Of a stretch of 64,000 bases of DNA, positions 7,043 through 63,746 are shown piece after piece; the first letter of the stretch is position 1, and each line of letters starts with the position of its first letter. The stretch covers positions 32,001-96,000 of the IMG/VR virus record IMGVR_UViG_3300044680_000048; one strand, 5' to 3'. The DNA comes from a virus. The translations under genes and the position numbers were made by a program. Below the pieces are notes generated by a model. That model had not been told where the DNA came from and made no database searches. It saw only the letters and a program-made list of their open reading frames with translations.

Positions 7043-10000
7043 TTAAGCAAATTGAGAGTTTAAACTAATAGATGCACCGGTTGATATGGCATCTACCAAG
7101 TCCGTCTTAGAGAGTTGGGAAAGGGTCTTAGAGTTAGTAGCAAGATCCTCCTTTACCCCTTTTATTGCTTCATCAAAGTCTTTCTTTTGTCTATCTTTAT
7201 ATTGGGAAGCTGATTCATTGGCTCTTTTTTCTCCGGTTTTATTAAATCGGTTAACAACTTTGTTGGCCTGTTTTTTTCTAGTATCCTCCGCTTCTTCTTC
7301 TGAGGGAAGACTAAAGTCAAATCCTGAATCTTTCAGTTGGTCTTTAATGTTATTAACTCCAGGATCAACTATTGTTTTTCGTAGAAATGCCTTAAGGGCA
7401 GGATTAGAATCCCCTAATTGAGAAGTGAATTCTTGAGCTTGCCGGAGAAAACTAAATTGTGCATTTAATCTCTCGGTAGGGATGTTAGCTTTCTCTCTTC
7501 GGTTCTTTTTCTGAGATATGTTAAATTCAGATTCAGTATCTGCGTCCTCTTCGGAGCCTCTAAGGTCACTATTCCTATTTAGGGCAGATTGATACTGCTT
7601 TTCAGCCCTATCTCTCTCAAACTGCTTACGAAAGGGATTTTCTAAACCATCTAAACCAGGAAGAAGCGTAGCAGCATTTAGCCTAGATTGGGCAGCATTA
7701 AGTCTATCTGAGAAATCAAACTGGTCTTCTGCGGACTCACCTTTAGCAAGACGACTTCCACCTTGGTCTATTCCAAGAACACCATTTAAAGCCTTCTGAG
7801 CTTCATTAATTTCCCTTTGACGGGTAATGTTATCAGCAATAGACTTATCTAGTGCCTCAAAGCTGTTTTTAGTAATATCTATAACCTTTACTAACCCTTG
7901 AAGTTCGCCAGGAAGCCCTTGGACACTTCCGCCAAGTTCAGAAACTCTATCGGCAGCTGTTAGAATATTTTCTTGTCTATTTAGATGTCTAAGTTCACGT
8001 TCATCCTTAAAATCTTCTTGGGCACGCCCAGTTCTCCTATAGGAAATATCAAGACTTTTGGTCTTATCATCTAGGTCAGCCATGGTATCTTTAAGCTTAG
8101 TAAACCCCTCAATTAGATTAAGGGTAGAACCATAAACATCTAGGGGAAGCTTTTCTTGGTCCCTTTTAAGTCCAGCAAGCTTAGTTTGTTCAGATCTAAG
8201 TTGAGCTTGGTCTTCTTCATTATTACCTGTTCCGTTTGCGACTCTTTTTTTAAGAAGTTCAATGTTAGCTTGAGCAGATTTAATTCCAGCAGCATCAGCG
8301 GCATTTCTTCCACTGAATGTGAAAGTATCAAATCCTTGGGCTCTAATGTTATTTCTCTTTATTTCTAGGTCAATGGACTCTCTAACTGTGCGGGTACCTT
8401 CTGCTATTATCTGTTTACGTTTAAGCTCAGATTCTGCGGAAGCATTGGAGACGGCATTATACTCTTCCGTACCCTTGGTAAGAGTCTTCAACCTTTCAGC
8501 TAAATTAGAAGAAATTTCAGTTTGGGTCTTTAGCCTAGCGTTAATGTCTTGTTGGGCAGCAGAATTCGCCTCTCTGGCTCCACCAATGGTACTCGTGTCA
8601 TAAAGCTTCTGATGTTCTGACTGTAGTGAGGTTTGTCCCTCTTCTATCAAATTGAGAAGAGGTGTTCTCTTGCTTAATTGTTGTTCTTTAGAGAGCCTAG
8701 TTAAACCTGCCAGTCCAGCAGTTGCAGCAGCTATCTGACTAAATGGGTTTTTGCCGGAACTGGCTATAGAGGTAGAATCAAATTTATCTAAATCTTCGGG
8801 CTTAAGTCCATAATCTGCTAATATGTTGTTAAATTTAGCTAGGGGGTTCAACCCTGATTGGAGTCCTGGAGATGTATTCTTGAGATTACCAACATTACCC
8901 CCCGCAGCTTTTAACTTAGCGAGTTGTGCAGCATTAGTTTGCAGCCTCCCGATCTGATTATCTTCTTCTATATCCGCATTGACTTTATCACCAATGCCAG
9001 GAAAAAATGTATTGAGGGCTACACTGTTTTGAACTCCTAGTCCTTTCAAAACGGGATTGTTGCGAATAGTTTCTGAAATTAAGTTCTGTGTATTGGTGTT
9101 ATTTTGTCCTGTTTGTTCAATTAATTTAATAACAACAACAGTAGCAGTGGAGCTAAGATTTCCTATTGCAGCCGCTAAATTTTGAAGATTTTTAGTAATA
9201 GAAGGGTTGGAAATGAACTCATTGAACGCCTTAAGTCCTGGAAGGAGTGCCTTATTTAAGGATTCCCCAGCGTCTGCCTGGGCTGTATTTAGCTGAAACT
9301 GGGCCTTATAAATCTCTGTTAGGGGCTGATTACCATCTTTAATGGCTTGGTAAAACCCCCTTAGAGGTTCAATAGCCTTTTGAATATCTTCGGGAGTCCC
9401 GAAAGATAAAGCATTTTGTAAATCAGGGGCTAAAGCTTGGATAGTGGGTCCAACAGTTGTAGAACTTAATCTCTGTCCAGAACCAATATCACGTAACTCT
9501 CGTGCTTCTTTAGCTTCACCTAAATTGAAAGGCTTTAGGACTGCGGTCAAAACCGGTAGAACGTCCTTAAGTTCACCTTCGGTTGCTTTACCTCGCCTCC
9601 CCTCTTGATACGCCTGTGTTAGAAGAAATTCTTCTTTCCCTCCAACGCCTAGAGGAGCTAGTGCAACTCTAGCCGTCTTCTGAAAACGTGTGGCTATTCT
9701 CTCCTGCTCTCCTAATTGCTCAGCAGGAGATACTGGCTTACCATCTCTAGTAATTTCAGTAGTAGCTTGGAGAAGCCCTACAGTTCCAGCTACCGATTTC
9801 TCAAAATCAAGAGCTACTTCAGAGGCAGATTTAAGAGTATCGAATAACTTCTCAAAAGCTGCTGTAGTAGCAGATACAATAGAAGTTCCAGCCAGAACAC
9901 CCGTTGCTCCACCAAGAGTAGTAGCACCTATTGCTCCACCAATGGCATTAGCAGGACCCCCTAAAAGTCCTGAAAAGAATACAGCCTGTGCTGCTTCTTT

Positions 10001-20760: not shown

Positions 20761-21954
20761 CTAAGAATGCCCTGTGAGCAAACAGCGGCTCTGAGCAAGG
20801 GGGTCACATAACGATATTAAATCGAACAGAACACTCAAGTGATAGAGGTTAGTTACTGGCCTTTCCACTAAAAAACTTCCAGGCTTGCCTTGCATATGGA
20901 ACTTAGCCAGTTGAGGAAGCGAAGCACGGAAGAACATAGTAGTTCCGGTAGGCATCTGCATATCTCTGATGAAGGGGATAGCAAGTCCGTTATTGTCTTC
21001 GTAGATCATTTGGATATCGCCAGGCTCAAGTCCTAGTCCGGCAAGTCTCTTTACGAGTACTTCGTCATAGCCCATTTTTGCCAGCGGCTCATTGCCGGGG
21101 TAGCGGTTGATCATCAAGTTACGGATAACAGGGATCTGGGTGTTATTGGTTAAAGCAACAACATCATTTAGAGCGTCAAAACCGAAGAAGGCAGCTAACT
21201 GTGTGATAGCTTGAGCAATCAAAGCATCAGTGAGGTTTCCCCCGCCTACTGCAATTGGTCCTACGGTTGATCTCGTTACCATACCACCAAGAGATGGGAT
21301 ATTAGGGAGAGCTTCATCGGTATTTTCCAGAGCACTCAAGAGCAGAGGGTTCATGGTCCGTTCCATACGGATCATTGCTTTCTGGATTTGTGCTTGGAGT
21401 TCATTCCGGCGGTAAGGTGATTGAGCAGCAAGTTCTTCCGCCATAAAAGAAACGTTAATCTGTTGACCGATAGCCATCAGGGTATTAGTTCTTTCCGACA
21501 AGACTGACTGTTGAACTGCTGGGAGATTACCTTCTACGTTGAAAGCTGACAATTGGTCATTACCAATGGTTTCTTCCGGAATCCGGATCTGATAATCAGT
21601 TGCCGGGAAAGAAGGTTTCTTTTTCAGGATGTTAAGGAATTTGGCTTCCGTATTAACAATCTGAGCAATATAAGGATAGAGACTTACGATTCTTACTGGA
21701 CCAAGGTCTACTCCGGTAACGTCTTTATTAACTACCATAGTAGAGAATGCGTCCGAGGAGTCGGTATTCATTCTTACCGGCATATTCTTTAGAAGACGGC
21801 TAACCTTTTCACGGGTTTGGCTATCTTTGCACTCTTGGTACAAGATAACATCGATAGGTTGCGGATCAGCTTTCTGAATCGGAACCAGAGCTTGGTTCCC
21901 CGCACTCTTGTTTTGAAGATTAGATACCAGATCTTCTGCGCCAAATTGAGACAT
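20761..21954 (-). CDS. major capsid protein candidate (397 aa)
   Basis: It lies immediately downstream of the protease/scaffold gene. A GGAG box lies 7 nt upstream of the ATG, and a strong terminator follows. The size is typical. No fold-level evidence is available from the sequence alone. Confidence 0.55.
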   Translation of the reverse strand: MSQFGAEDLVSNLQNKSAGNQALVPIQKADPQPIDVILYQECKDSQTREKVSRLLKNMPVRMNTDSSDAFSTMVVNKDVTGVDLGPVRIVSLYPYIAQIVNTEAKFLNILKKKPSFPATDYQIRIPEETIGNDQLSAFNVEGNLPAVQQSVLSERTNTLMAIGQQINVSFMAEELAAQSPYRRNELQAQIQKAMIRMERTMNPLLLSALENTDEALPNIPSLGGMVTRSTVGPIAVGGGNLTDALIAQAITQLAAFFGFDALNDVVALTNNTQIPVIRNLMINRYPGNEPLAKMGYDEVLVKRLAGLGLEPGDIQMIYEDNNGLAIPFIRDMQMPTGTTMFFRASLPQLAKFHMQGKPGSFLVERPVTNLYHLSVLFDLISLCDPLAQSRCLLTGHS

Positions 21955-21964
21955 TAATAACTCC

Positions 21965-24139
21965 TTACTGTTGGGCCCAATTGGCCATGATGAAACTGTC
22001 TAGTGTGTTTGCCGGTTGAGTAGCTTTATTTACTTCAACAGCTTTGTTCTGGATCTCAAGAACTTTTTCTACAAGTTCTTCCGCACTGGTGGAAGCAGCG
22101 GCTTCTACAGCCTTACTAATTGATTCGACCATTTTGGCAAGCTCCCCAATCAGTTTTGATTGATCAGCCTGGATTGATTTCTGTGCTTCTACAGCAGCGA
22201 CAAGCTTGTTGACTTTTTCAACAGCTTCCTTGTTAGAAGCAACAAGAGACTTTATTGTTAGGTTGGTTTCCGGAGAGAGTGAAGCTTCTACAGATTTACC
22301 AAGCTTTACGGAAGTCGGATCTTTATCTTCCGATTTTCCTAGTTTGACGGAAGTAGGGTCACTATCTTCGTTAGTAATTTTCTTAGTGTCGTTATCACCG
22401 TCGCGGTCTTCACCGCCAACACCCTCATCACCATCAGGTTCTTTGTGGGCCTTAACACACTCATCATCTTCTTCAGACTTCATGCACTCATCTTCTTCAG
22501 CAGAAGCTTTAGTGGAAACATCTTCGTACTTAGAAGGATCAGCATCACCGGAACCCGGATTTAGCTTAACCGCATCTTTTTCTTCTTTTGCCACTGATTT
22601 ACTATCCTGTATAGTGTTAACGTTAATTATTGTAGCGGAGGATTTATTTTGTGTTAAATTATCTCTCAAAGAAGAGGCATGAACATTTAGAAGTGTCCCA
22701 AAAGCCTCATAAGAATTAACTGCCCCTTCTGGCAATTCCATATTATGTGTCCAGATGGTAGGGCGTTCAGCAGATTTAGCAGCTTCAAGACGATGATGAC
22801 CATCAATCATATAGATATCTCCATTGCGGGAGATAGTCATTCCACCATCAAAATTTCCTTCTTTAACAAATTGTGCAACTTTTTCTGCGTCTACGGCAGA
22901 CTGAGTTGGTTTAACTTGTTCCGGACGAACCTGAACAAGGGGAAGACCCTTATATAATCCTGGATTACTAATCAATGCCTTAACAACAGAAAACTCAAAT
23001 TCACTTTTAAGAAAGTCTGGATACAGGGTTTTATTGATGGATTCTGTTAAAGATTTCTGTTCAGGAGGTCCGGAAGAATCTATTTCTCTTTTCCAAGCAG
23101 CCTTAATCTTAGATTTTATATGAGAAAGTTCTTCAGAGGAGTACTCTGAAGAATTCCTTTCTTGATGAATGTAATTCCAAGCTGCTCTGATGTGCTCTTC
23201 TGTATCTATAGGATAACGAGGTTTTTTATCTTCCTGGTAACCAGGATCTGCGTATTCTACATCCCCATAAGGTTTTTTCGCTTTCATCATTGCTGCTTCA
23301 GGAGCATTATCACACTCATGAGCATTATCTTCCGGTTCATCTCTATAGGCTTCTGGATCAGTAACTCCACCACCATTAGGGGGAGAAATAGTAGCTTTAT
23401 CCTCAAGGGCTTTTTGTTGAAGAGATTTGATTGCGGTTTTCATTCGAGCGGGAACATTTACAACCGATCTTTCTAGGTAGCGGGCAACTTTATTAATAGT
23501 TACTGAAACAGGTTTGCCGGATTCATCCACCTGTCCCGGTTCATGTGGGCAGGCATAAGAATAAATAGACATGTTACAGGAACTACAAACTTTATGGTTG
23601 GGGTCTACTAAAATACCTACAGAAATAGAACGAACAGTACCGTTTTTTATTCCTTTTATAAGAGGAGCATGGTAATCCTCAAGAGGAATGCCCCATGTTT
23701 CTCTAGGACCTTCTTTAGTCATCCTAGAAGAAAGGCAGATACCTAATGGAGGGAGATTATTAAGATTATGTGAATGATCCATGAGGACGGGAGTAGCTGG
23801 TCCACCGTCTACTATGTCCTGTTCAGCATCTTTGGAGAACTTATCTCCTTGTACATCAACCTCATTTCCAAGGCCTAGAACGTTAATATTACGTAAAACC
23901 ATCCACTGGTGGGCTTCTTGGGGCACAACAGAAAATTCATTAATGAGTTTCATTTCTTCCATAGAAGGAGATAAACTTTGATTCTCCTCTACCATTGTCT
24001 TAGCAGCTTTAAGAGTTCCGGTACTTCCCATACTCTTATACATAACTAAGCCGGTCTCTTCTTCAGGTTCCGGCAAAGACTTCTTGATAGAAACTGCTCT
24101 TACTTCTTCCGGAAGGACTTTTTTAAATTCTTCTACCAC
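21965..24139 (-). CDS. prohead protease - ParB/Srx-like domain - scaffold fusion protein (724 aa)
   Basis: The N-terminal part has HK97-type prohead protease-like segments (PVLMDHSHNLNNLPPLG, SISVGIL). A YADPGY...YPIDTEEHIRAAWNYI motif follows. The ParB N-terminal-type motif is VKPTQSAVD...MIDGHHRLEAA, with DGHHR at 22790-22804. An acidic tract and an Ala/Glu/Lys coiled-coil C-terminus complete it. GTG start. Confidence 0.6.
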   Translation of the reverse strand: MVEEFKKVLPEEVRAVSIKKSLPEPEEETGLVMYKSMGSTGTLKAAKTMVEENQSLSPSMEEMKLINEFSVVPQEAHQWMVLRNINVLGLGNEVDVQGDKFSKDAEQDIVDGGPATPVLMDHSHNLNNLPPLGICLSSRMTKEGPRETWGIPLEDYHAPLIKGIKNGTVRSISVGILVDPNHKVCSSCNMSIYSYACPHEPGQVDESGKPVSVTINKVARYLERSVVNVPARMKTAIKSLQQKALEDKATISPPNGGGVTDPEAYRDEPEDNAHECDNAPEAAMMKAKKPYGDVEYADPGYQEDKKPRYPIDTEEHIRAAWNYIHQERNSSEYSSEELSHIKSKIKAAWKREIDSSGPPEQKSLTESINKTLYPDFLKSEFEFSVVKALISNPGLYKGLPLVQVRPEQVKPTQSAVDAEKVAQFVKEGNFDGGMTISRNGDIYMIDGHHRLEAAKSAERPTIWTHNMELPEGAVNSYEAFGTLLNVHASSLRDNLTQNKSSATIINVNTIQDSKSVAKEEKDAVKLNPGSGDADPSKYEDVSTKASAEEDECMKSEEDDECVKAHKEPDGDEGVGGEDRDGDNDTKKITNEDSDPTSVKLGKSEDKDPTSVKLGKSVEASLSPETNLTIKSLVASNKEAVEKVNKLVAAVEAQKSIQADQSKLIGELAKMVESISKAVEAAASTSAEELVEKVLEIQNKAVEVNKATQPANTLDSFIMANWAQQ
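22289..22360 (-). repeat. tandem duplication DPTSVKLGKSEDK / DPTSVKLGKSVE inside the scaffold region
   Basis: Read in the translation at aa 594-617. The underlying unit is an imperfect 39-nt DNA repeat. Confidence 0.7.
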
Positions 24140-24203: not shown

Positions 24204-24282
24204 AGTAGGGTAGGGGAGTCTGGTCGTCCCCGCAAGGCTCATAACCTTGAGATCGTGAGTTCAAATCTCACCCTTGCAACCA
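24204..24282 (+). tRNA. tRNA with CAU anticodon (Met, or Ile2 if lysidine-modified), CCA encoded
   Basis: I folded the cloverleaf by hand. The D stem is GGGG/CCCC with a GG-containing loop. The anticodon arm is CAAGG-CTCATAA-CCTTG. The variable loop is AGATC. The T arm is GTGAG-TTCAAAT-CTCAC. The acceptor stem AGTAGGG/CCTTGCA has an A1-A72 mismatch and two G-U pairs, followed by ACCA. Confidence 0.75.
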
Positions 24283-24284
24283 AT

Positions 24285-24608
24285 TTAGATAAAAGAACTA
24301 TCATGCCTATCTATTAGGGACATAATTTCTTCTTGGGTGGCATCTGGATGATGGGGGATAGAGGTTTCCCGTCTCCATACTTCCGGATGATTAGGGTCAA
24401 TGGGATTAACTCCATTCCCATAAACCACTATTACATGATTATCTAGGTTAGGGTGTTTACTAACACTCATTATTTGGGCTTTCTTTTGCCCTCTATATTG
24501 AGGAGTAGAAGTTCTTTCTATGACTCTTGTGGCAATCAAATCTATATCATCATCGGTTAATTCATACCGGAAGAGATTCCATAACCACTCTTTCACTTTT
24601 TTAAACAT
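24285..24608 (-). CDS. hypothetical protein (107 aa)
   Basis: Co-oriented ORF in the head operon. It ends 3 nt from the tRNA 3' end on the opposite strand. Confidence 0.5.
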   Translation of the reverse strand: MFKKVKEWLWNLFRYELTDDDIDLIATRVIERTSTPQYRGQKKAQIMSVSKHPNLDNHVIVVYGNGVNPIDPNHPEVWRRETSIPHHPDATQEEIMSLIDRHDSSFI

Positions 24609-24610
24609 AT

Positions 24611-25033
24611 TTAGAGGGCATCTCCCAATAAGGTTACTGTTGATGCCGTAGTAGCATCAGCACTTCTAAGAGTAACCTTGATCCACCCACCTGTCTGAGC
24701 TAGGTTAACATTGAAGACAGTATTAACTGTTTGAGGACTTCCATCATTAGCTACTATAGGATTAAGGACAACAGTTTGTCCAACACTGTCATAGGCAGGA
24801 GTTATGGGATTCCCGCCATTAACATAAAATCCAGGTTGTCCATTAGGGACCGCCGGTCCAAAACCATTAGTAACATTACAGGTAAAACCCGTAATAGAAG
24901 AAGTGGAAGCAAAGGTTATAGAAGTTTCTACCTGAAGTTCATTGAAGACAGTGGCATCTATTTCTATAATAAGAGTTCCGGAAGCAGCTACTGAATAGGT
25001 TCCATAATTCGTGTAATTAGAATGCGAAGCCAT
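24611..25033 (-). CDS. small Gly/Ser/Thr/Val-rich virion-type protein, family member 1 (140 aa)
   Basis: It has almost no charged residues and carries an AASGT motif near the N-terminus. It resembles ORFs 30840-31244 and 33022-33519. Confidence 0.5.
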   Translation of the reverse strand: MASHSNYTNYGTYSVAASGTLIIEIDATVFNELQVETSITFASTSSITGFTCNVTNGFGPAVPNGQPGFYVNGGNPITPAYDSVGQTVVLNPIVANDGSPQTVNTVFNVNLAQTGGWIKVTLRSADATTASTVTLLGDAL

Positions 25034-25179
25034 TAATAACTCCCTACATAGAAGGCAGTTGTTTGGGAACCAAAGCCTAAACTATACCTTTCTCCGGAAA
25101 CATCCATATTTCCCGCTCCGTCATCTACCCATTGAACAGTTTGACTATCAGAAGAACCACCGGAAAGAAATACCAACAT
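25033..25179 (-). CDS. small hypothetical protein (48 aa, below the track cutoff)
   Basis: Hand translation gives MLVFLSGGSSDSQTVQWVDDGAGNMDVSGERYSLGFGSQTTAFYVGSY. A GAGG box lies upstream, and a TAATG overlap joins it to the next gene. Confidence 0.3.
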   Translation of the reverse strand: MLVFLSGGSSDSQTVQWVDDGAGNMDVSGERYSLGFGSQTTAFYVGSY

Positions 25180-25221
25180 ATTAAACCTCAAATCTTAAAC
25201 TATGTAGAATTTTAGCTTTAG

Positions 25222-26061
25222 CTAAAAGCTGCCCCTTAAGGTTTCATAGGCTAACTCATATCCATGGTTTATTAGGGACTTCCGGTCCTTCTTATAGTTA
25301 AAGTCTATTAAATTACGCTGAATATTACTCTCTGCCTTTACTACTATAACTTTAACCTCTCTAAACCGAGAGTTGGTAGATACTATGGAGTTGATTGTCT
25401 CAACAAATTTAAGTTCTTTCGATATGGAGATATAAGACGGTAATGATAAACCAGCCTGCATTACATCTAAAATACTGTTTATCTTGTAACAAGTCTCCGG
25501 CACTTGAGGTTGAAACAAGACAACAACATCGGCGCCCATTTCTACTGCCTGAGAAACCGAGAAGTTATTACTTAGCCCACCATCTAGGTATTGTTGACCA
25601 TTAAGAGAAACAGGCTCAAATAAAACTGGAGGTGAAGCAGATGCTCGTAAGAACGCCGGCAAGTCTTCTCCTAACTCATGAACGTCTTTAGTAACACCGC
25701 TCCAATCTGTAAAATTAGTAACGTTAATTAAGAATTTCTTAGGGTTTCCGGCAACTTTACCATTATCTATATATTTCTTTAATGTTCTTTCCAGAGGAGA
25801 AGAGTCGTATAAACAGAACTTACCGGAAAGAAAGTTACCAAATGGGTTTAAACTATAAACATCCGGATTCTTAATATTCATCCACAGATCTAGCATTTCA
25901 TCTATTCTATTTTGATGAAGAAAAAGACCATTCAGGCTACCAACGGAAGTTCCATGAAGAACGTCATAAGTAAGTCCTAATTCATGCCAAGCTTTAATCA
26001 TCCCGGCTTGTAGGATGCCCATTGAACCGCCGCCGGAAAGACATAGGTGGATATTAGACAT
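25222..26061 (-). CDS. patatin-like phospholipase (279 aa)
   Basis: It has the oxyanion-hole motif SGGGSMG, the GxSxG nucleophile GTSVGS and the catalytic Asp motif YLDGGLSNN. The Ser-Asp dyad is therefore intact. Confidence 0.8.
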   Translation of the reverse strand: MSNIHLCLSGGGSMGILQAGMIKAWHELGLTYDVLHGTSVGSLNGLFLHQNRIDEMLDLWMNIKNPDVYSLNPFGNFLSGKFCLYDSSPLERTLKKYIDNGKVAGNPKKFLINVTNFTDWSGVTKDVHELGEDLPAFLRASASPPVLFEPVSLNGQQYLDGGLSNNFSVSQAVEMGADVVVLFQPQVPETCYKINSILDVMQAGLSLPSYISISKELKFVETINSIVSTNSRFREVKVIVVKAESNIQRNLIDFNYKKDRKSLINHGYELAYETLRGSF

Positions 26062-26494
26062 TGATTAGAGGAATGTTGTATTGCACAGCAAGTGATTCCG
26101 CCATGGTTATTACTGTAGGAGTCAACCAAGTGGGATTGGTTGCTTTTAGCCCCGTCCAATACTGAGAAATTGCTAGTGGATAGGTCGTAATAAATTTGTC
26201 TACTAGCGGGAAGGCTTGAGAGAGATTTATAGCGGCTTCGGTTAGTCCTTGAGCCAGCAATCCCTGAAATAAAGATCCCTGGAACATGTCGGGATTTGGG
26301 ACGGCGACGTTAGTCGGAATGTAGATCAGCACTCCATTCACGATTTTGTAATTCGTGATATTCTGGTCGCCGTTATACGACATGAACGGCGCCCAAGTGT
26401 CTTCCGCTGATGGCGTATCAACACCAGGCACGATGGTTGCTTGGTTGTTTGTGCCGGTGCAATTTGTTTGTCCGGCGAATTGAATTACGTTCAT
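26054..26494 (-). CDS. hypothetical protein in the tail-fibre-chaperone position (146 aa)
   Basis: It lies immediately downstream of the fibre gene and belongs to the same GC-rich island as the fibre C-terminal domain. Confidence 0.5.
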   Translation of the reverse strand: MNVIQFAGQTNCTGTNNQATIVPGVDTPSAEDTWAPFMSYNGDQNITNYKIVNGVLIYIPTNVAVPNPDMFQGSLFQGLLAQGLTEAAINLSQAFPLVDKFITTYPLAISQYWTGLKATNPTWLTPTVITMAESLAVQYNIPLINV

Positions 26495-27304
26495 TATTTA
26501 CTCCGCATCCATAAAGACTGACTTTGTAGCTATGTTGACAGCCGTTGTGCTTAGTGTGGTGATCGTCTCGACATTGCACGCAACACCTGATATCGGGACA
26601 TCTGTCGTTGTAGACGCAGCTAGTACTGACGCACCGCCGTTAGTACTGATGTAGAAACTTACTGTGCCAGGTATAGAGCAATCAACCGCCATTGTGTATA
26701 CGGTGTTGTAATTTATTGGGACCGTCGTAGTGATCACGTTTTGCGCTGAGCCTGTGCCAGTTACACAACGCCAGTACTGAGTAGCATCTACTGCGGGCGA
26801 GTAGCGAAATGCGGCCACGCTAACTGCGGTCCCAGGTGTATTCGTTCCTGTGCAATATGCAGCACCACCGCCTAGCATCCCCACCCAGATCCGGCAATTC
26901 TGAATGTCTGTAGAACTTGATCCGGTCCTAATAGTCGCTATATATCTCGGTCCTGGGTACGTATTATTGAATACTCCCCAGTTTGCATTTGCTTGCGAAG
27001 AGCTACCGGCGTAGGTGCCCGAGGTAGTTGAAGTAGCAAAGTTGACTGCGAAATCTAATCCAGCAGTACCCCACAGCGTCGTAGCAGTGCCCGAATTTGT
27101 GGGACTAACTGTGTTCAAACCTCCCGAAAAATATACAGAAGTCGTTGCGACTGCTGGATAACTATAGGTTCCCCATCGCCGCGGACGAGCGCAGGTGATT
27201 GACGGGAACATATAACTATTAACCCACGCACCCGTCCCAGATCCAGTATTTTGAATTGTCTGCCCGATGTTGCCACCGGATGGTAAGCCGCCTCCACCTC
27301 CACC
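26090..27304. other. GC-rich compositional island (fibre C-terminal domain plus downstream ORF)
   Basis: Sampled 60-nt lines here are 48-57% G+C, against 35-40% in the flanks. The CCGG sites here are never in TTCCGG or CCGGAA context. The right edge coincides with a Gly6 linker at 27287-27304. Confidence 0.6.
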
Positions 27305-30300
27305 AGAGGCTGTAGAGGCAATAGTTATTGTGCTATTAGTAGAATTAAGAGTTAATGTAGTATTGGACCCGGCAACTAATGCATTAGTTAAAGCTGAGTA
27401 TATATCAGTAGCTACAGGTGCTCTAAAAGTAGGCTTGTTTGCAGCTCCTGTTGTAGGTCCAAATAACCCTGTTCCTGAAGCTTGATTAATTAGAGAAAGT
27501 TGAAGAGTTCCGTTAGCTGTAAGAGGAGAATTTGTTGCTGGAGAGGTAAAAATTACATTATCTGTAGTTAATCCAACAGAGGTTAAAGCCCCAGAAGCAT
27601 AATTACTTAAGGTTATAGAATTAGCCGCATTACTAACTGTAATTCCTACACCAGTTATATTAGCCGGACTATAAGATCCTCCAGAAGTAGATCCTATAGG
27701 TATTTGACCATCTGTAGGGACAGTAGAAACTCCAGTTCCACCTGAGTAGACACTGGCTATCTGAGGCTTGATAGTTCTCCAACCACTAATTCCATCACTT
27801 ATAACGCCCATGACTTGGAATTTCAGCATGGTTTTGGATGTAGAACCGCCATCAAAGGTATCGGTTCCATTAGTAGTTACAGTACAAGCATTAGTCCCAG
27901 TAACAGTATTATTATTAAAATAAAATACTTCTGCTACAACACTTGAAGCAGCCGGGAGAATCAAGGTTACAGGAGCAGTTGAGGCATCCATATTCTGGTA
28001 GCCCGGAGAAGTATTGGTTAAAGTTGCACTAACTGTAGCTGAAGCGAATCCTTGGAATAAATTAACATAAGCCGGGAGTCCATTAACTACTCCTATTGCT
28101 TGAGAAGTTAAACCAACTCCTAAAGCAGACTCTACATTGGCATTTGTGAAGTAAGGAATATCTCCCATAGTTCCTACTGCCGAAAGATTAATCTGTGGAG
28201 TTGAAGTTGAATTGGTTACATTAACTGCAATTGAAGGAATAGAACTACTGGCAGATACAGAACTTACTGTGCCGGAACCTCCTCCTGAAGCAGTAGAGGC
28301 AATAGTAATAACACTTCCATTATTAGTTAGAGTAATATTATTTCCGGCAGCTAGGGCTCCAGTAAGATCACTACCCGTAAGGTTCCTAAATGTAGGAGCT
28401 GCATTACCACCACTTGCTGGACCGGCAAAGATAAGTCCTGAGGCTTGATTTACAAAAGTTCCTGTTAAAGTTCCAGAATTTATAACAGGAGAGCCTGAAA
28501 CAGTAAATATGGTATTAGGGAGACTTAATGCTACAGAGGTAACTGTCCCATTGGTATTTGAGCTTCCGGCATTAGAAATAATGTTTAAAGTATTTCCATT
28601 GTTTGTTAATGAAAGGTTACTTCCACTAACTGTAATTGCATTAGTTAGGTCACTTCCTACTATATTGCGATAAATTGGAGAATTTGGACTTCCAGAAGCT
28701 GGACCACTTAAGAAAGTACCAGAGGCTGCACTTGATAGATTAAAACTTAAAGTTGGCGTAGTATTTGAAGTGCTAACTGATGTTGTAAAAATTGGATTGG
28801 CAGTGCCCGCTGAAAAAGAAGTTACTGTCCCACTAGTATTAGAAGAACCAGCAGCGCTGATAATAACATTAGAACCATTGTTATTGACTGTAACATTAGT
28901 TCCGGCTTGAATAATTGATCCTAAATCATATCCAACTAAATTCCTGTAAGAAGGACTTCCCACAGCCCCACTTGCAGGTCCAGATAAAATTTGACCAGAA
29001 GCTGTATTGGATAGACTAAAACTTAAAACTGGAGTAGTAGTTGAATTAGCAACTGAAGTTGTGAACACGGGATTAGCCGAACCAGCCGAAAAGTTTGTAA
29101 CGGTTCCTGAACTAGAGCCACTTCCAGCTACTGCTGAAATAGTTAGAACTCCTCCACTATTATTAAAGTTTATATTAGCCCCAGCAGCAAGACTTCCAAT
29201 TAAATCATTACTATTTAATGTCCTATAAGTAGGAGCAGTAGAACTACCTGAAGTTGGACCAGCTAAAAAGGTTGCCGAAGCTGCATTGGAAATAGTATAA
29301 GAAATGGAAGGTGCAGTAGTAGGGTTAGAAACCGCACTTGTAAATATAGGAGCTAGGTTTCCAGAAGAGACAGAAGTGACTGAACCATTCCCGCTCGATG
29401 TTGAAGATATTATTATATTTCCATCGGAATTTCCAATGTTTATATTACTTCCAGCAGTTAAGCTATTAGGAACCCAACCTGTGGCAGATCCTATTAACAG
29501 TTGTCCAGGACTATTACCTTGAGGAAGATCTGTTAAGACCATTGCTCGAAAATTAGGAGTTCCAGAAGTGGAACTTGGTGAAGCAAATATCTGTCCAGAA
29601 GATTGTGAAGATAAGGTGTGAGAAATTACGGGAGTAGTAGTAGGGTTAGTTGTACTAGAAGTAAACAGTCCGGTAAGTCCTGAGTCACTTACGGAAGTTA
29701 CTGAACCTGAAGCATTATTAGTAGCAGTAATTGTTATCTGAGAACCATTATTGCTTAAACTGATCCCAGAACCATTATTGAAGTTTCCGAAAATATCATT
29801 ACTGATAATTCCCCGATAACTTGGGGCTCCAGCAGTGCCAGAAGCAGGTCCGGCAAGAAATTGTCCTGAGGCTTGATTTGTTAGAGAAAAAGTAGTACTA
29901 GGTGTTGTAGTTGAAGTAGCTGTGGTGGAAGTAAAGATAGGAGAAAGGTTGCCAACAGCGACACTTGTTACTGACCCACTAGCTAAACCAGTTGCGGAAA
30001 TAGTTCCACCAGAAGATATGTTTATATTACTTCCAGCAGTTAAAGTAGGAACTACATCAGAAGCTGTTAATGGTCTAAATCCAGGAGTGGCATTTCCACC
30101 AGAGATTGGTCCAGCATACACCTGCCCTGAAGCTTGACTAGTAACAGTAAAGGTTAAATTAGGTGTGCTGGTGGGTGTAGCTACGGATGTAGTAAAAAGC
30201 CCACCAGCATTTCCAGAAGTGAAACTACTTACTGTTCCACTACCACCAGAAGAGGCAATGACTAGGCTACTTCCCACTAAGGTTAGAGTAATATTTGAAC

Positions 30301-30838
30301 CCGCAGAGAGGGCAGAAATTAAATCTGAACCAACATGTAATCTATAGTATGGAGTTGCCGCAGACCCTGTTACAGGTCCTGCTAAAAACTGACCAGAAGG
30401 AGCAGAAGATAAGAGAAAACTTAATGCTGGTGTGGAAGTGGGATTGGAAACTGAAGTGGTGAATATAGGATTTGCTATTCCAGCCGAAAAGTTTGTTACT
30501 GTTCCTAATCCAGCTCCAGAAGACCCAATAGTTAATGTATTGGTCCCAGCAGTTAGAGAGATTCCGGCACCTGCTACTAACTTGAAAGAATTAGGAAGGT
30601 TGGACGTTTCATTAGCTTGAGTTACATAGGTGCCGGAAGGATAACCTCCACCAGCAGCCGAGACTGTTAAATTTCCACCTGAGAAGGTTAACGTGATATT
30701 ACTTCCGGCAGCAATAACACTTGCTCCGGTAAGAGTAGAGTTAGAAGAAGTTAATAGATAAGGAGCATTCGTAGGCGCTCCACCAGAGCTTCCTCCGGTA
30801 GATGAACTAAAGAATATTGGGGGAAAGAAAAACTTCAC
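26498..30838 (-). CDS. giant repeat-containing fibre protein (1446 aa)
   Basis: It has about ten repeats of 85-100 aa, an internal non-repeat domain, a Gly6 linker and a 262-aa C-terminal domain. It has almost no charged residues. Confidence 0.7.
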   Translation of the reverse strand: MKFFFPPIFFSSSTGGSSGGAPTNAPYLLTSSNSTLTGASVIAAGSNITLTFSGGNLTVSAAGGGYPSGTYVTQANETSNLPNSFKLVAGAGISLTAGTNTLTIGSSGAGLGTVTNFSAGIANPIFTTSVSNPTSTPALSFLLSSAPSGQFLAGPVTGSAATPYYRLHVGSDLISALSAGSNITLTLVGSSLVIASSGGSGTVSSFTSGNAGGLFTTSVATPTSTPNLTFTVTSQASGQVYAGPISGGNATPGFRPLTASDVVPTLTAGSNINISSGGTISATGLASGSVTSVAVGNLSPIFTSTTATSTTTPSTTFSLTNQASGQFLAGPASGTAGAPSYRGIISNDIFGNFNNGSGISLSNNGSQITITATNNASGSVTSVSDSGLTGLFTSSTTNPTTTPVISHTLSSQSSGQIFASPSSTSGTPNFRAMVLTDLPQGNSPGQLLIGSATGWVPNSLTAGSNINIGNSDGNIIISSTSSGNGSVTSVSSGNLAPIFTSAVSNPTTAPSISYTISNAASATFLAGPTSGSSTAPTYRTLNSNDLIGSLAAGANINFNNSGGVLTISAVAGSGSSSGTVTNFSAGSANPVFTTSVANSTTTPVLSFSLSNTASGQILSGPASGAVGSPSYRNLVGYDLGSIIQAGTNVTVNNNGSNVIISAAGSSNTSGTVTSFSAGTANPIFTTSVSTSNTTPTLSFNLSSAASGTFLSGPASGSPNSPIYRNIVGSDLTNAITVSGSNLSLTNNGNTLNIISNAGSSNTNGTVTSVALSLPNTIFTVSGSPVINSGTLTGTFVNQASGLIFAGPASGGNAAPTFRNLTGSDLTGALAAGNNITLTNNGSVITIASTASGGGSGTVSSVSASSSIPSIAVNVTNSTSTPQINLSAVGTMGDIPYFTNANVESALGVGLTSQAIGVVNGLPAYVNLFQGFASATVSATLTNTSPGYQNMDASTAPVTLILPAASSVVAEVFYFNNNTVTGTNACTVTTNGTDTFDGGSTSKTMLKFQVMGVISDGISGWRTIKPQIASVYSGGTGVSTVPTDGQIPIGSTSGGSYSPANITGVGITVSNAANSITLSNYASGALTSVGLTTDNVIFTSPATNSPLTANGTLQLSLINQASGTGLFGPTTGAANKPTFRAPVATDIYSALTNALVAGSNTTLTLNSTNSTITIASTASGGGGGGLPSGGNIGQTIQNTGSGTGAWVNSYMFPSITCARPRRWGTYSYPAVATTSVYFSGGLNTVSPTNSGTATTLWGTAGLDFAVNFATSTTSGTYAGSSSQANANWGVFNNTYPGPRYIATIRTGSSSTDIQNCRIWVGMLGGGAAYCTGTNTPGTAVSVAAFRYSPAVDATQYWRCVTGTGSAQNVITTTVPINYNTVYTMAVDCSIPGTVSFYISTNGGASVLAASTTTDVPISGVACNVETITTLSTTAVNIATKSVFMDAE
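27305..30505 (-). repeat. ~270-300-bp coding repeats of the fibre (about 10 units, interrupted around aa 860-1040)
   Basis: The repeat unit reads G[ST]VT[SN][VF]S.G...P[IV]FT[ST]SV.N.T.TP.LSF.LS..ASGQ.LAGPASG....P.YR.L...DL. The similar antisense shadow ORFs at 27267, 28212, 29007, 29304, 29922, 30165 and 30432 reflect this periodicity. Confidence 0.75.
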
Positions 30839-30839
30839 C

Positions 30840-31244
30840 TTACGGAATATCTCCTACTACTTTTATTGTGGCAGGGTTTGCCGGATCAGGATTAGAAATT
30901 ACAAATCTTACCCACCTAGGAACCATGTAACAAAGTACTTCAATAAAGTCTGTATTGGTTAAACTAGAGCCGGAAGAAAGTTGATAAGTAGTTGCGCCTG
31001 TCTCATATATAGGTACGTTACTTCCTCCTATTACTATAGGAAGGGTTCCATTAGCGGTTGGGTCACTATTGCCGCAACCTGCATAACAATTTACTACCAG
31101 ACCAGAAGCCAGAAGAGAGGCATAGGTAGCACTTACGCCAATTGTTACTGGACTATTTTGGAAATTAAAAGTGTCTACATCGAAAGTATAACTGCCGCTA
31201 GCTGCGAGAGTTGAAACAGGAACAATTATCTGAAAATTGGACAT
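30840..31244 (-). CDS. small Gly/Ser/Thr/Val-rich virion-type protein, family member 2 (134 aa)
   Basis: It has AASGSYTFDVDT near the N-terminus and ends in IKVVGDIP, compared with TLLGDAL in member 1. It lies immediately upstream of the fibre gene. Confidence 0.5.
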   Translation of the reverse strand: MSNFQIIVPVSTLAASGSYTFDVDTFNFQNSPVTIGVSATYASLLASGLVVNCYAGCGNSDPTANGTLPIVIGGSNVPIYETGATTYQLSSGSSLTNTDFIEVLCYMVPRWVRFVISNPDPANPATIKVVGDIP

Positions 31245-31370
31245 TTATTGTCCCTTTTTCTTCTTTTTTTTCTTTTCCGATTTAGGTTTATCAAGCCCTT
31301 TAGCAAGGAAAATCAGTTCCGTAGATTCTGACTTCTGCACTTCAGCAACTTTTTTATCAGTATTAATCAT
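31245..31370 (-). CDS. small Lys-tailed hypothetical protein (41 aa, below the track cutoff)
   Basis: Hand translation gives MINTDKKVAEVQKSESTELIFLAKGLDKPKSEKKKKKKKGQ. An AAGGA box lies upstream, and the stop abuts the next ATG. Confidence 0.3.
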   Translation of the reverse strand: MINTDKKVAEVQKSESTELIFLAKGLDKPKSEKKKKKKKGQ

Positions 31371-31394: not shown

Positions 31395-31403
31395 ATTGTA
31401 ACT
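31395..31403 (-). promoter_or_regulatory. AGTTACAAT promoter-like box
   Basis: The minus strand reads ATATCTAGTTACAATTC, overlapping the portal stop and 25 nt upstream of the ATG at 31370. Confidence 0.4.
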
Positions 31404-32916
31404 AGATATCTTGGTATGGAAGAGTATCAATTACAGCTTCTTCCCCTACTGGTAGTTTCATAGGAGTTGCCGGAGGTACTACTTCAGAAGCAACTGAGAT
31501 ATTGGGAAGAACCCTTAGAGGTTTCTTACCAGCAGTTCCACCTAGAGGAGGAAGTTTAGCTATTTCAGTTCTGGCTTCATCAACAGACATAAATCCATCC
31601 AATTTACCAATATCAACTAAGGACTTAGCCATATTCATAGTAAAGGAATTGAATCTATCCCTTGCCCGAATCTGTACGTCTTTTATTCCGGCTCTGGGAA
31701 GGATTTCAGAATTAATGAAATTATCAACTATCTTAACTACTTGATAGATAGCTTTATCAAAGATATCAGCAGCTTCATCAGCAAGAGAAGCAGCATGGTA
31801 TTGCTGATTAGCATTAGTAATAATTCCTAAACGTTCATGGGGGACACCCATTACATGAGCAACCTGTTTAGCAGCTTTATCAGAAGTTTTGTGGAAGGCT
31901 CCATCTAAGTCAGCCAGATTATTCATCTGTTTAATATCACGGGCACCCGTAAGGACTACAGTATCAAATCCGGCTCTGGCTCCAGAATGGTTTGCCCGAA
32001 GTTCATTTTCCATTTGACGGGCAAGAGCCATACTATTAGCCCCGGGAATTCCCGTAGTAGACTTATTATTATCCATAAGGATAGCCATGCCAATAAGACC
32101 GCCTTTCTGGAAGACCATATTGTTATACATAGAAGCCTGAAGATCTGCTTCTAAATCAGTCAAGAGAGTAGCCAATGGGGCATTTCCTAAATCATAATGT
32201 CTCATTGACCGGCGGTAGACACAATGCTTAAGTTGGTCCACTTCAAATATATAAGCTACAAATCCCACATAATAAATCCATTGGACAACTCTTTGTCCAT
32301 CAGGACTAAATCTTGGTTCAAGGTATTGCGGAAGAAGGATTTTAAGATCCTTAAGTCCACCCAACATATTATTTCTGGGCCAAACCCAAAAGTTACCATA
32401 AATCTTAAGGTGATCTACAAGCTCTAGACGGAGTTCATCTATCCGGAATTCCTTACAAACTCTCTTAGCTTTCTCAAAATTCTTCTCATTACCTACTAAG
32501 TAGTAACCATCAGAAGCAATTTCCCTAGAGAACTCTTCCCGGCAACACCATACAGCCCAATGGTTCTCAGCCAAGAAGGCGAAAATCCCAAAAGGGTTAG
32601 GGAATAACTGCCAGAAATTAGATCCTTGTGCCCGGAATCCATATAAATCTCCAAGCCCAAACATCCCAAAATACTTATTCTGTTGCTGTAACCCCTTACT
32701 CTCTACATAAGTCTTAGTAAAAGAAGCAGCTTCACTCTTAAATTGATTAATTAATTTAAAGGCAGTTTGTGGATCTTTATAAGTAGAGAGGGAAGAAAGT
32801 TGAGTAACTAATCCATTAATTCTACCAATAGCCGCTTTCTCTACTGGATCTGAAATTACAAGAGCTTCGGCAGCCTTCTTTAGGGCTTTCTCTTTCTTCT
32901 TTTTCTTCTTACTCAA
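31402..32916 (-). CDS. portal protein candidate (504 aa)
   Basis: The size and its position one gene downstream of the large terminase support the call. TTG start gives a poly-Lys N-terminus (MSKKKKKKEK). No motif-level confirmation is possible here. Confidence 0.5.
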   Translation of the reverse strand: MSKKKKKKEKALKKAAEALVISDPVEKAAIGRINGLVTQLSSLSTYKDPQTAFKLINQFKSEAASFTKTYVESKGLQQQNKYFGMFGLGDLYGFRAQGSNFWQLFPNPFGIFAFLAENHWAVWCCREEFSREIASDGYYLVGNEKNFEKAKRVCKEFRIDELRLELVDHLKIYGNFWVWPRNNMLGGLKDLKILLPQYLEPRFSPDGQRVVQWIYYVGFVAYIFEVDQLKHCVYRRSMRHYDLGNAPLATLLTDLEADLQASMYNNMVFQKGGLIGMAILMDNNKSTTGIPGANSMALARQMENELRANHSGARAGFDTVVLTGARDIKQMNNLADLDGAFHKTSDKAAKQVAHVMGVPHERLGIITNANQQYHAASLADEAADIFDKAIYQVVKIVDNFINSEILPRAGIKDVQIRARDRFNSFTMNMAKSLVDIGKLDGFMSVDEARTEIAKLPPLGGTAGKKPLRVLPNISVASEVVPPATPMKLPVGEEAVIDTLPYQDI

Positions 32917-60966: not shown

Positions 60967-61242
60967 ATGGAACCAAGAAATGTACCAGTTTTTCTATTTG
61001 GAGCACCTCAAATAAACCCAGAGACAGTTACTAAGATCTCAGATAATATATTCTTAGTTCCTCCGGACGGTATTGTATTTGCCTGTTTACGGGAACCCTC
61101 TGAAGAAGATATGGTAACTATCAAGAAAACAGTAGAGGGAATGATGGAAGCCCAATTCCAAACCTTAGATTCACCGGAAAAGTACATGACCCTTGATGAA
61201 GTTAAGGAGATGTTAGACCAGGAGAAGGAAAGTGGAGTTTAG
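60967..61242 (+). CDS. hypothetical protein (91 aa)
   Basis: An AAGGAG box lies upstream. Co-oriented with its neighbours. Confidence 0.5.
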   Translation: MEPRNVPVFLFGAPQINPETVTKISDNIFLVPPDGIVFACLREPSEEDMVTIKKTVEGMMEAQFQTLDSPEKYMTLDEVKEMLDQEKESGV

Positions 61243-61723
61243 ACAATCTCCTAATTACACTAAGGGAAGAGGGGGAAAGAAGCCCTCCATGATAGTAATT
61301 CATGCGATTGCCGGAAGTGCTACTTCTGCCGAAAATTGGTTCATGAATACACATGCTAAGGTCTCTGCCCACTACATTATTGACCAGACCGGAAAAATAG
61401 TTCAAATGGTTAAGGATGAGGACACAGCTTGGCATTGTTATGGCTTTAATCAAACAAGTATTGGTCTGGAACATGAAGATTTCGGAAAGTGTCTTAAAGA
61501 CCCTAATTGGGCCTCTGAGACTCTACTAGAGGCTTCCGCTAAACTTGTAGCCTCTCTTATGAAGAAGTGGAATATCCCTTTAGAGAAAGTTAAAGGACAT
61601 AATGATCCAGAAATTGTGGGGTATGCCAAGAGGCTGAAACCAGGTATGGCGCACGCTGACCCTGGACTTTTCCCTTGGGATCTCTACCGGAAACTGATTA
61701 CTAAACACTTAGGAGATAAATAA
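61232..61723 (+). CDS. N-acetylmuramoyl-L-alanine amidase (PGRP/T7-lysozyme type) endolysin (163 aa)
   Basis: The Amidase_2 pattern IVIHAIAGS...SAHYIIDQTGKIVQMV...DTAWH...NQTSIGLEHE is present. Confidence 0.8.
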   Translation: MEFRQSPNYTKGRGGKKPSMIVIHAIAGSATSAENWFMNTHAKVSAHYIIDQTGKIVQMVKDEDTAWHCYGFNQTSIGLEHEDFGKCLKDPNWASETLLEASAKLVASLMKKWNIPLEKVKGHNDPEIVGYAKRLKPGMAHADPGLFPWDLYRKLITKHLGDK

Positions 61724-63282: not shown

Positions 63283-63517
63283 AGGAGAACACGCCCATCT
63301 AAATGTTTCCTTTATAGCCGAATTATTTGGAATAAGTGTAAGTAGAACCCGCCGGTATCTAAAGAAGCATAAAGTTAATACAATAGAGGACCTTGGGGAA
63401 TTAGTATGGGAGATACGGACAATTGAAAAAATCAAATTTACTGGTAGGACTTTTCACTATCTTGGCACTGACTGGATGCGATCAGAACCAGTTAAACCTA
63501 AAAGTAGAGAAGTTTGA
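63263..63517 (+). CDS. helix-turn-helix protein (84 aa)
   Basis: VSFIAELFGISVSRTRRYLKKH is HTH-like. The 3' end overlaps the lipoprotein gene by 95 nt, so its extent is uncertain. Confidence 0.4.
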   Translation: MKNKRIRGEHAHLNVSFIAELFGISVSRTRRYLKKHKVNTIEDLGELVWEIRTIEKIKFTGRTFHYLGTDWMRSEPVKPKSREV

Positions 63518-63746
63518 CGATACTATAACAAGCCACACTTACACCAAACACTATGGCACCTGCCAAGGATGGAAAGCTATCTATTGTGTTTACGGGAAGA
63601 CCCCTTCCGGAATCCCTGCTGGAGTAGCAGTAACTTTTGACCATAAGTTTTTCTTTAGTATTAAGGAATTAACAGATAAGAATCCGGAACTTCTTACCCA
63701 AGCAGTAAGTAAGGCGGAAGAAGTTCAAGAGAAGTTAGTGAGATGA
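63423..63746 (+). CDS. lipoprotein (107 aa)
   Basis: The signal peptide carries a lipobox: MKKSNLLVGLFTILALTGC. Confidence 0.6.
   Translation: MKKSNLLVGLFTILALTGCDQNQLNLKVEKFDDTITSHTYTKHYGTCQGWKAIYCVYGKTPSGIPAGVAVTFDHKFFFSIKELTDKNPELLTQAVSKAEEVQEKLVR

Follow-up and report, generated by a model that had tools for sequence, protein, structure and literature searches.

The window analysed here is a 64,000-nucleotide stretch, bases 32001–96000 of the 111,990-bp IMG/VR virus record IMGVR_UViG_3300044680_000048, and it encodes a patatin-like protein, a predicted Ser–Asp lipid acyl hydrolase, within an operon that runs from the portal gene to the major capsid gene. We consider it quite possible, at a little under an even chance, that this patatin acts late and in the cytosol, where it would hydrolyse membrane lipids in support of lysis, and that its gene was relocated into a variable slot of the operon. 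Lysis leads among the roles considered because of what accompanies the gene elsewhere in its family: an overlap with an endolysin gene on one contig (L004) and, in eight related large-phage contigs, a GH73-like partner and two small hydrophobic or coiled-coil proteins encoded upstream.

A patatin with a conserved catalytic dyad

The Pfam Patatin profile (PF01734) matches residues 6–172 of the protein over profile positions 1–190 of 191 (E = 8.5e-30; 104.8 bits against a cut-off of 27.7), which on sequence is far beyond chance, and this gene was the sole patatin match in a six-frame search of the complete 111,990-bp genome. The motifs named in an earlier, sequence-only reading of this DNA are all present in the translation: the glycine loop L-S-G10-G-G12-S-M-G15 (GGGxxG), with G10, G12 and G15 in place; the nucleophile elbow G37-T-S39-V-G41 (GTSVG, of the GxSxG type); and the catalytic aspartate motif D160-G-G. 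That reading described the enzyme as catalytically intact, a description that holds for the dyad and the glycines and has to be qualified for the loop, in which Met14 stands at the Arg or Lys position of G-G-x-R/K-G. Apart from this basic residue, all features that define PF01734/PNPLA proteins are found, and by sequence the protein is a member.

An AlphaFold2 model built with 16 homologues was confident (predicted local distance difference test (pLDDT), 87; predicted template modelling score, 0.88). Among solved structures, Foldseek ranked the PlpD patatin domain first (E = 7e-16; template modelling score (TM-score), 0.68–0.75), followed by CapV and CapE and then by potato patatin, iPLA2-beta, VipD and ExoU. 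All 30 of the top 30 PDB fold matches were patatin-fold lipases, and those in BFVD were viral patatins. PlpD was also the only PDB match at the sequence level (E = 4.8e-15); the NCBIfam RssA equivalog scored 55 bits, below its cut-off of 272, and no PHROG matched, structural families included. Scanning the protein for a hydrophobic or transmembrane segment, a signal peptide or a lipobox revealed none, and its termini coincide with the ends of the fold, leaving no extra N- or C-terminal segment for particle targeting.

A full scan of 1.84 billion representative sequences yielded 61 clusters at E < 1e-30; with few exceptions, these are 260–300 residues long and match over their full length. Ser39 and Gly41 are present in 90 of 90 aligned family members and Asp160 in 89, the remaining one having a gap; G10 and G12 are essentially invariant. 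The loop residue is Arg or Lys in 63 members and neither in 27. The dyad is thus kept among the homologues, and the objection foreseen by the sequence-only reading, that it might not be conserved there, fails to refute the proposal of an enzyme.

Phylogenetically, the ~280-residue patatins group in a clade of their own with support of 99/90, to the exclusion of more remote patatins. Within it, the protein studied here falls into a subclade with five cassette-type patatins (described below) with moderate support, and not with the types found on contigs L003 and L004. The protein belongs to a distinct ~280-residue patatin family that has so far been found only on phage-like metagenomic contigs; the surroundings look phage-like in all 11 patatin contexts examined. 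GTDB genome scans with narrow patterns (alignment A5; P0004) confirmed no relative; that the family was not seen in these bacterial species genomes is, with patterns so narrow, weak evidence for its absence.

The patatin gene lies in the portal-to-capsid operon

Every gene from the portal to the major capsid protein is on the minus strand, in the order portal, ~41-residue open reading frame (ORF), 134-residue ORF, 1,446-residue fibre, 146-residue ORF, patatin, a doubtful 52-residue ORF, 140-residue ORF, 107-residue ORF, 724-residue head-assembly protein and major capsid protein (coordinates in Table 1). Strong minus-strand hairpins resembling terminators occur only before the portal gene and after the capsid gene. 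The start of the patatin gene overlaps the stop of the 146-residue ORF downstream of the fibre by 8 nucleotides, and no Shine–Dalgarno-like sequence was found upstream of that start, so translational coupling to the 146-residue ORF is likely. Both the overlap and the late-operon placement had been claimed from the sequence alone. The former is confirmed, and the latter is supported by the shared strand, by the overlap and by the fact that no strong terminator lies inside the operon; from this layout, co-transcription and translational coupling of the patatin with the late portal–fibre–capsid genes are very probable. The gene sits in a head-proximal late operon, between portal and scaffold, not in a tail module.

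Relatives carry the patatin in a fixed gene cassette

We retrieved the gene contexts of ten family members. In eight contigs (L002 and L005–L011), the patatin gene occupies a fixed place in the series small hydrophobic protein, coiled-coil protein, patatin, GH73-like protein and RecA. The first protein has about 93–116 residues and two to three moderately hydrophobic segments; the second, of 85–107 residues, combines a coiled coil with an H-E/D-H-x-F motif and a C-terminal hydrophobic segment. The protein after the patatin has 135–189 residues, and its gene usually overlaps that of the patatin. Pfam assigned PF01832 (Glucosaminidase) to seven of these eight proteins; all eight align as one family with a copy in the genome studied here, and the profile of this family matches FlgJ and other GH73 structures. 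An AlphaFold2 model of the copy in this genome (pLDDT, 80) had GH73 enzymes alone as its top Foldseek matches, among them Auto, AtlA and FlgJ. Where FlgJ has the motif 'ALESGWG', the family aligns with '..K/R/M/A-S-x-W/F-G', and an Asp or Glu that is invariant in the family (E58 in the copy of this genome) lies four residues, or one helical turn, upstream of the canonical Glu site.

The other two contexts differ from this arrangement. Contig L004 (44 kb) comes from an unrelated siphovirus that is lambda-like. Its patatin gene begins within the last nucleotides of a PHROG-7 endolysin gene (E = 2.5e-39), with 4 nucleotides in common, and the pair stands where the tail module ends, a classical location for lysis cassettes. 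On L003, the patatin gene follows those of a beta-helix (Pel9A-like) protein and a 153-residue ORF.

The genome studied here has a cassette of the same kind that lacks a patatin gene, about 40 kb from the patatin. It encodes a 112-residue hydrophobic protein, a 98-residue coiled-coil protein with an HExTF motif, a 45-residue transmembrane ORF, a 162-residue GH73-like protein and RecA; the 45-residue ORF stands at the place that the patatin occupies in the eight relatives.

A resident gene relocated into a variable slot

A search with the portal protein identified two closer relatives, L012 (portal 68% identical) and L013 (54%). Both share a backbone of portal, small ORF, homologue of the 134-residue ORF, repeat fibre, homologues of the 107- and 140-residue ORFs and head-assembly protein. 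The 134- and 140-residue ORFs are paralogues (25% identity, E = 3e-5) that bracket a variable slot, and both are kept in L013. After its fibre gene, L013 has ORFs of 714, 64, 106 and 133 residues, and tblastn detected no patatin in this slot. The L012 contig stops inside the ORF that follows the fibre, so that L013 alone informs on slot content. The fibre shaft is common to both relatives and the phage studied here up to about residue 1165; the C-terminal tip, which follows a Gly6 linker, is unique.

This tip is compositionally distinct. A GC-rich island covers the last ~270 residues of the fibre together with the 146-residue ORF and stops at the patatin start. None of the six CCGG sites in the island is in the TTCCGG/CCGGAA context of the genome, compared with four of eight in the patatin gene, whose G+C content (38%) is that of the genome. 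These features, with the unique tip on a shared shaft, suggest that the fibre tip and the putative chaperone were swapped recently. Joint arrival of the patatin with this island was considered and rejected, because the G+C content and CCGG context of the patatin gene are native.

The patatin-less cassette, the native G+C and CCGG signature and the grouping with cassette-type patatins together argue for relocation. The simplest history, read from these sequences, would be that a resident patatin gene moved from the cassette to the late operon and that the fibre tip and chaperone were swapped afterwards. As the slot of L013 shows, the morphogenesis module does not consistently keep a patatin beside the fibre.

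A possible accessory role in lysis

If the patatin assists lysis, it would be made late from the portal-to-capsid operon by coupling to the 146-residue ORF, would stay in the cytoplasm and would cleave acyl chains off the glycerolipids of the host membrane. The resulting lysolipids and fatty acids would destabilize the inner membrane from within. After holin and wall hydrolase action, the enzyme might reach the outer membrane too, giving a net effect akin to that of mycobacteriophage LysB or of a spanin substitute. Having left its usual cassette for a variable slot of the late operon, the patatin would owe its placement to this move, and the placement would be no sign of particle membership. 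Entry, lysis and inter-phage conflict had all been offered as options by the sequence-only reading; of these, the comparative context favours lysis.

The genome encodes an Amidase_2 protein, a lysozyme-like ORF and a GH73-like ORF. Given the Amidase_2 homologue, a candidate endolysin, the phage is not short of wall hydrolases. Its only ORF with a lipobox could, from its sequence, specify an o-spanin-like or exclusion lipoprotein; it has neither an adjacent transmembrane partner nor a C-terminal transmembrane segment and is thus not an obvious spanin. A single lipobox ORF with no spanin-type partner in a simple spanin search is compatible with a lysis role for the patatin, as weak evidence.

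Several points weigh against such a role. The patatin gene here adjoins no wall hydrolase or holin-like gene; about 35 kb separate it from the closest gene of the hydrolase type. In the relatives, the cassette lies among genes for replication and nucleotide metabolism (ribonucleotide reductase, DCD and RecA), with no obvious late module. Its two small proteins matched no PHROG or holin family, and their hydrophobic segments are moderate. The Foldseek matches of the GH73-like copy are weak (TM-score about 0.5, best E = 5e-3) and eight of nine members of this family lack the canonical catalytic Glu; judged by sequence, the partner may be a non-canonical enzyme or a binding module, perhaps with no hydrolase activity. 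In other patatins, the loop Arg or Lys helps substrate binding, and with Met at this position the substrate may not be a phospholipid. Finally, if a constitutively active cytosolic lipase were produced all through the late phase, the host might be killed too soon, and no regulator of patatin activity was identified.

A tentative extension, which we regard as somewhat unlikely, is that the ~280-residue patatins are widespread phage 'lipid lysins' that normally act from the four-gene cassette, whose GH73-like protein would have a shifted active site, and that open host membranes enzymatically, doing the work of holins, spanins or both, and that here one has been rewired to the late operon. If this were true, the rewiring would show that the lipase can work on its own timing signal.

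If the patatin is a lysis enzyme, it would represent a functional class not described so far, next to endolysins, holins, spanins, LysB and disruptin-type peptides, and would bear on how the lipid layers of the envelope are breached by phages in which spanins or holins cannot be recognized. Patatins carried by phages, and the notion that they form a lytic cassette, have been published before; our literature search found no proposal of a patatin in phage lysis beyond phage WO. What the present analysis adds is a delimited phage-only family, a four-gene cassette with a GH73-like partner and a relocation that amounts to a natural 'experiment'. As the protein is small and soluble, heterologous testing would be feasible without the host.

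Alternative roles

We judge it unlikely that the patatin is accessory cargo unrelated to lysis that serves inter-phage conflict or superinfection exclusion through membrane damage in cells already infected, host takeover through membrane remodelling or the release of fatty acids, or interference with lipase-based host immunity. The slot between the two paralogues does differ among relatives, as the four ORFs of L013 illustrate, and the neighbouring fibre tip and 146-residue ORF are compositionally foreign, but the composition of the patatin gene itself is native and its product groups with cassette-type patatins, whose fixed synteny in eight relatives is unlike that of typical shuffled defence cargo. 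Likewise, the second-best structural neighbours, CapV and CapE, are effectors of the cyclic-oligonucleotide-based antiphage signalling system (CBASS), and PADLOC models of phospholipase effectors give weak matches (30–34 bits); however, the CBASS_lipase equivalog scores 33.9 bits against a cut-off of 200, and family scans recognized no sensor, cyclase or immunity-like partner among the patatin neighbours. The comparison with CBASS lipases drawn in the sequence-only reading is therefore apt for the fold and does not extend to membership of that family. The strictly conserved dyad speaks for an enzyme rather than a decoy.

A virion-associated or ejected lipase that acts on the envelope during adsorption or DNA entry is improbable. 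It was the position of the gene that had suggested a virion or fibre role, namely in the portal-to-capsid operon, after the fibre and a possible chaperone and with the 8-nucleotide overlap, and the L003 family member has a comparable place behind a beta-helix protein and its 153-residue ORF. This position is specific to the genome: it is not conserved in nine of the ten other contexts, the eight relatives have their patatin in a different, fixed cassette, and L013, with the same portal–fibre backbone, has no patatin in the slot. Moreover, the protein consists of the patatin fold alone, with no attachment domain, targeting peptide, signal peptide or transmembrane segment, and matches no structural PHROG family. 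Thus, of the original interpretation, the patatin-fold enzyme, its apparently active dyad and the late operon are supported, and the particle-associated role is not.

Still less probable is an esterase for a non-phospholipid substrate, such as lysolipids, lipoproteins, acyl groups of lipopolysaccharide or teichoic acid, or an acylated sugar: Met14 replaces the usual loop residue and patatin-fold enzymes, including potato patatin and the PNPLA family, are broad acyl hydrolases, but the 27 members without Arg or Lys stay in the same cassette, so that the change need not alter function, and the closest solved relatives are all phospholipases.

Comparison with known systems

The passenger domain of PlpD from Pseudomonas aeruginosa (PDB 5fqu/5fya; RssA-type) shares the compact patatin fold, the Ser–Asp dyad and the glycine loop with the phage protein. 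In PlpD, the domain is secreted as part of a type Vd autotransporter and the loop Arg is retained, whereas the phage patatin is a standalone protein with Met at this position and no export signal.

Phage WO of Wolbachia also encodes a patatin, which adjoins a small holin-like transmembrane and coiled-coil protein and has been proposed, without experimental test, as an enzyme of lysis or entry (PMC9203015, PMC3173496). The patatin is proposed to stand in for an endolysin, the host having no detectable peptidoglycan, and it lies near the tail module together with an ankyrin protein (PMC9203015, PMC3173496). The likeness rests on the eight relatives described above, in which a coiled-coil protein with a transmembrane-like segment is encoded just upstream of the patatin. 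By contrast, the phage studied here and its relatives retain genes of the wall-hydrolase type (Amidase_2, lysozyme and GH73-like), and the patatin here is detached from the cassette, with the 146-residue ORF and the doubtful 52-residue ORF as its neighbours.

CapV and CapE, patatin phospholipases that cGAMP or cUA activates, have a patatin fold similar to that of the phage protein (TM-score, 0.66–0.70). Upon activation in CBASS, CapV degrades inner membrane lipids from within, and destruction of the membrane from inside by a cytosolic lipase, as practised by CapV and CapE, is the mode proposed here. The phage patatin differs in being 50–60 residues shorter, encoded by a phage and not by a host defence island. 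Membership of the CapV/CBASS family (NF041079) was rejected on the equivalog and PADLOC scores given above and on the lack of partners; no CD-NTase cyclase was found among the patatin neighbours (the fibre, the 146-residue ORF and small ORFs), none of which matched Pfam or PADLOC, and no genome-wide cyclase search was made.

LysB offers a functional analogy only. It is a lipolytic enzyme without a signal sequence that is encoded beside the endolysin and breaks the last lipid layer of the envelope, and its genetic setting can be compared with the endolysin–patatin coupling in L004. It acts on mycolyl-arabinogalactan through a Ser–Asp–His triad in a cutinase-like alpha/beta-hydrolase fold that is unrelated to the patatin fold. 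A likeness to spanins would similarly be one of role, as the phage patatin has no hydrophobic segment and no lipobox; it belongs to neither the spanin nor the LysB families. Linkage to a peptidoglycan hydrolase, as in a lysis cassette, is absent here and present in L004, and in the eight relatives the GH73-like neighbour is of doubtful competence.

Genome relatives and neighbouring genes

The record has direct terminal repeats and its completeness was judged to be 100%. No match to a 13-kb region was found by megablast among 50,697 GenBank phage records, nor to the capsid and portal proteins by tblastn in the same records. The best DNA polymerase in this collection is about 27% identical, which is too remote for host inference, and patatin matches there reach only 24–31% identity. 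In IMG/VR, no relative was confirmed when the patatin, the portal or a three-sequence alignment served as the query. The eight cassette-bearing contigs are distant relatives, with syntenic genes at 25–56% identity; genes in common include those for a Dam-like methylase, DCD, Amidase_2, RecA, a kinase-like protein, a glycosyltransferase and a sigma factor.

Around the patatin, the ~41-residue ORF has a 44-residue counterpart at the matching position in L013 and is probably, from this sequence comparison, a real small late gene. The 146-residue ORF, which had no match in Pfam, PHROG, NCBIfam or PADLOC, is 31% identical to a 151-residue ORF of L004, which there follows a 490-residue ORF with no family match, downstream of a GpJ-like tail gene. 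For the 52-residue ORF, no homologue was found in L012 or L013.

Table 1 Features of the patatin region and lysis-related genes, in window positions.
Feature	Position	Strand	Remarks
Patatin-like Ser–Asp lipid acyl hydrolase (predicted)	25222..26061	-	ATG start, 279 residues; Gly loop 10–15, Ser39, Asp160
8-nucleotide overlap, stop of 146-residue ORF and start of patatin (ATGTCTAA)	26054..26061	-	minus strand ...ATC AAT GTC TAA, which contains the patatin ATG
Portal protein, first operon gene	31402..32916	-	hairpin upstream at 32997-32976
Small ORF of ~41 residues, between portal and 134-residue ORF	31245-31370	-	L012: 72% identity over 25 residues
134-residue ORF, upstream edge of variable slot	30840..31244	-	kept after portal in relatives
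1,446-residue repeat fibre	26498..30838	-	phrog_9625; shaft repeats of ~92 residues
146-residue ORF after fibre	26054..26494	-	possibly fibre-assembly or chaperone-like
GC-rich island	26050..27300		44–51% G+C versus 34–41% in flanks; overall about 49% versus 38–40%
Doubtful 52-residue ORF, directly downstream of patatin	25033..25191	-	48 residues from internal ATG with GAGG upstream
140-residue ORF, downstream edge of variable slot	24611..25033	-	38% identity in L013
107-residue ORF	24285..24608	-	32% identity in L013
724-residue head-assembly protein	21965..24139	-	DUF6582 and ParB-like domain
SU10-type major capsid protein, last operon gene	20761..21954	-	strong hairpin terminator at 20726-20703
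Amidase_2-type peptidoglycan amidase homologue, candidate endolysin	61232..61723	+	40–43% identity to Amidase_2 of L005 and L007
Lipobox (LTGC) ORF, 107 residues, MKKSNLLVGLFTILALTGC...	63423..63746	+	conserved in L002 and L007
Patatin-less cassette	64589-67014 (window-equivalent)		genome 96589-99014, just past window end; ~40 kb from patatin

Two further features were observed. A tRNA-Met (CAT) gene at 24204-24282 on the plus strand lies antisense in the operon, between the 107-residue ORF and the head-assembly gene (ARAGORN; Rfam tRNA, 49.5 bits). On the relative L009, the RecA gene (7045-9282; 745 residues) carries an intein with Hom_end_hint and Hom_end domains, paralleling the intein in the terminase of the phage studied here.

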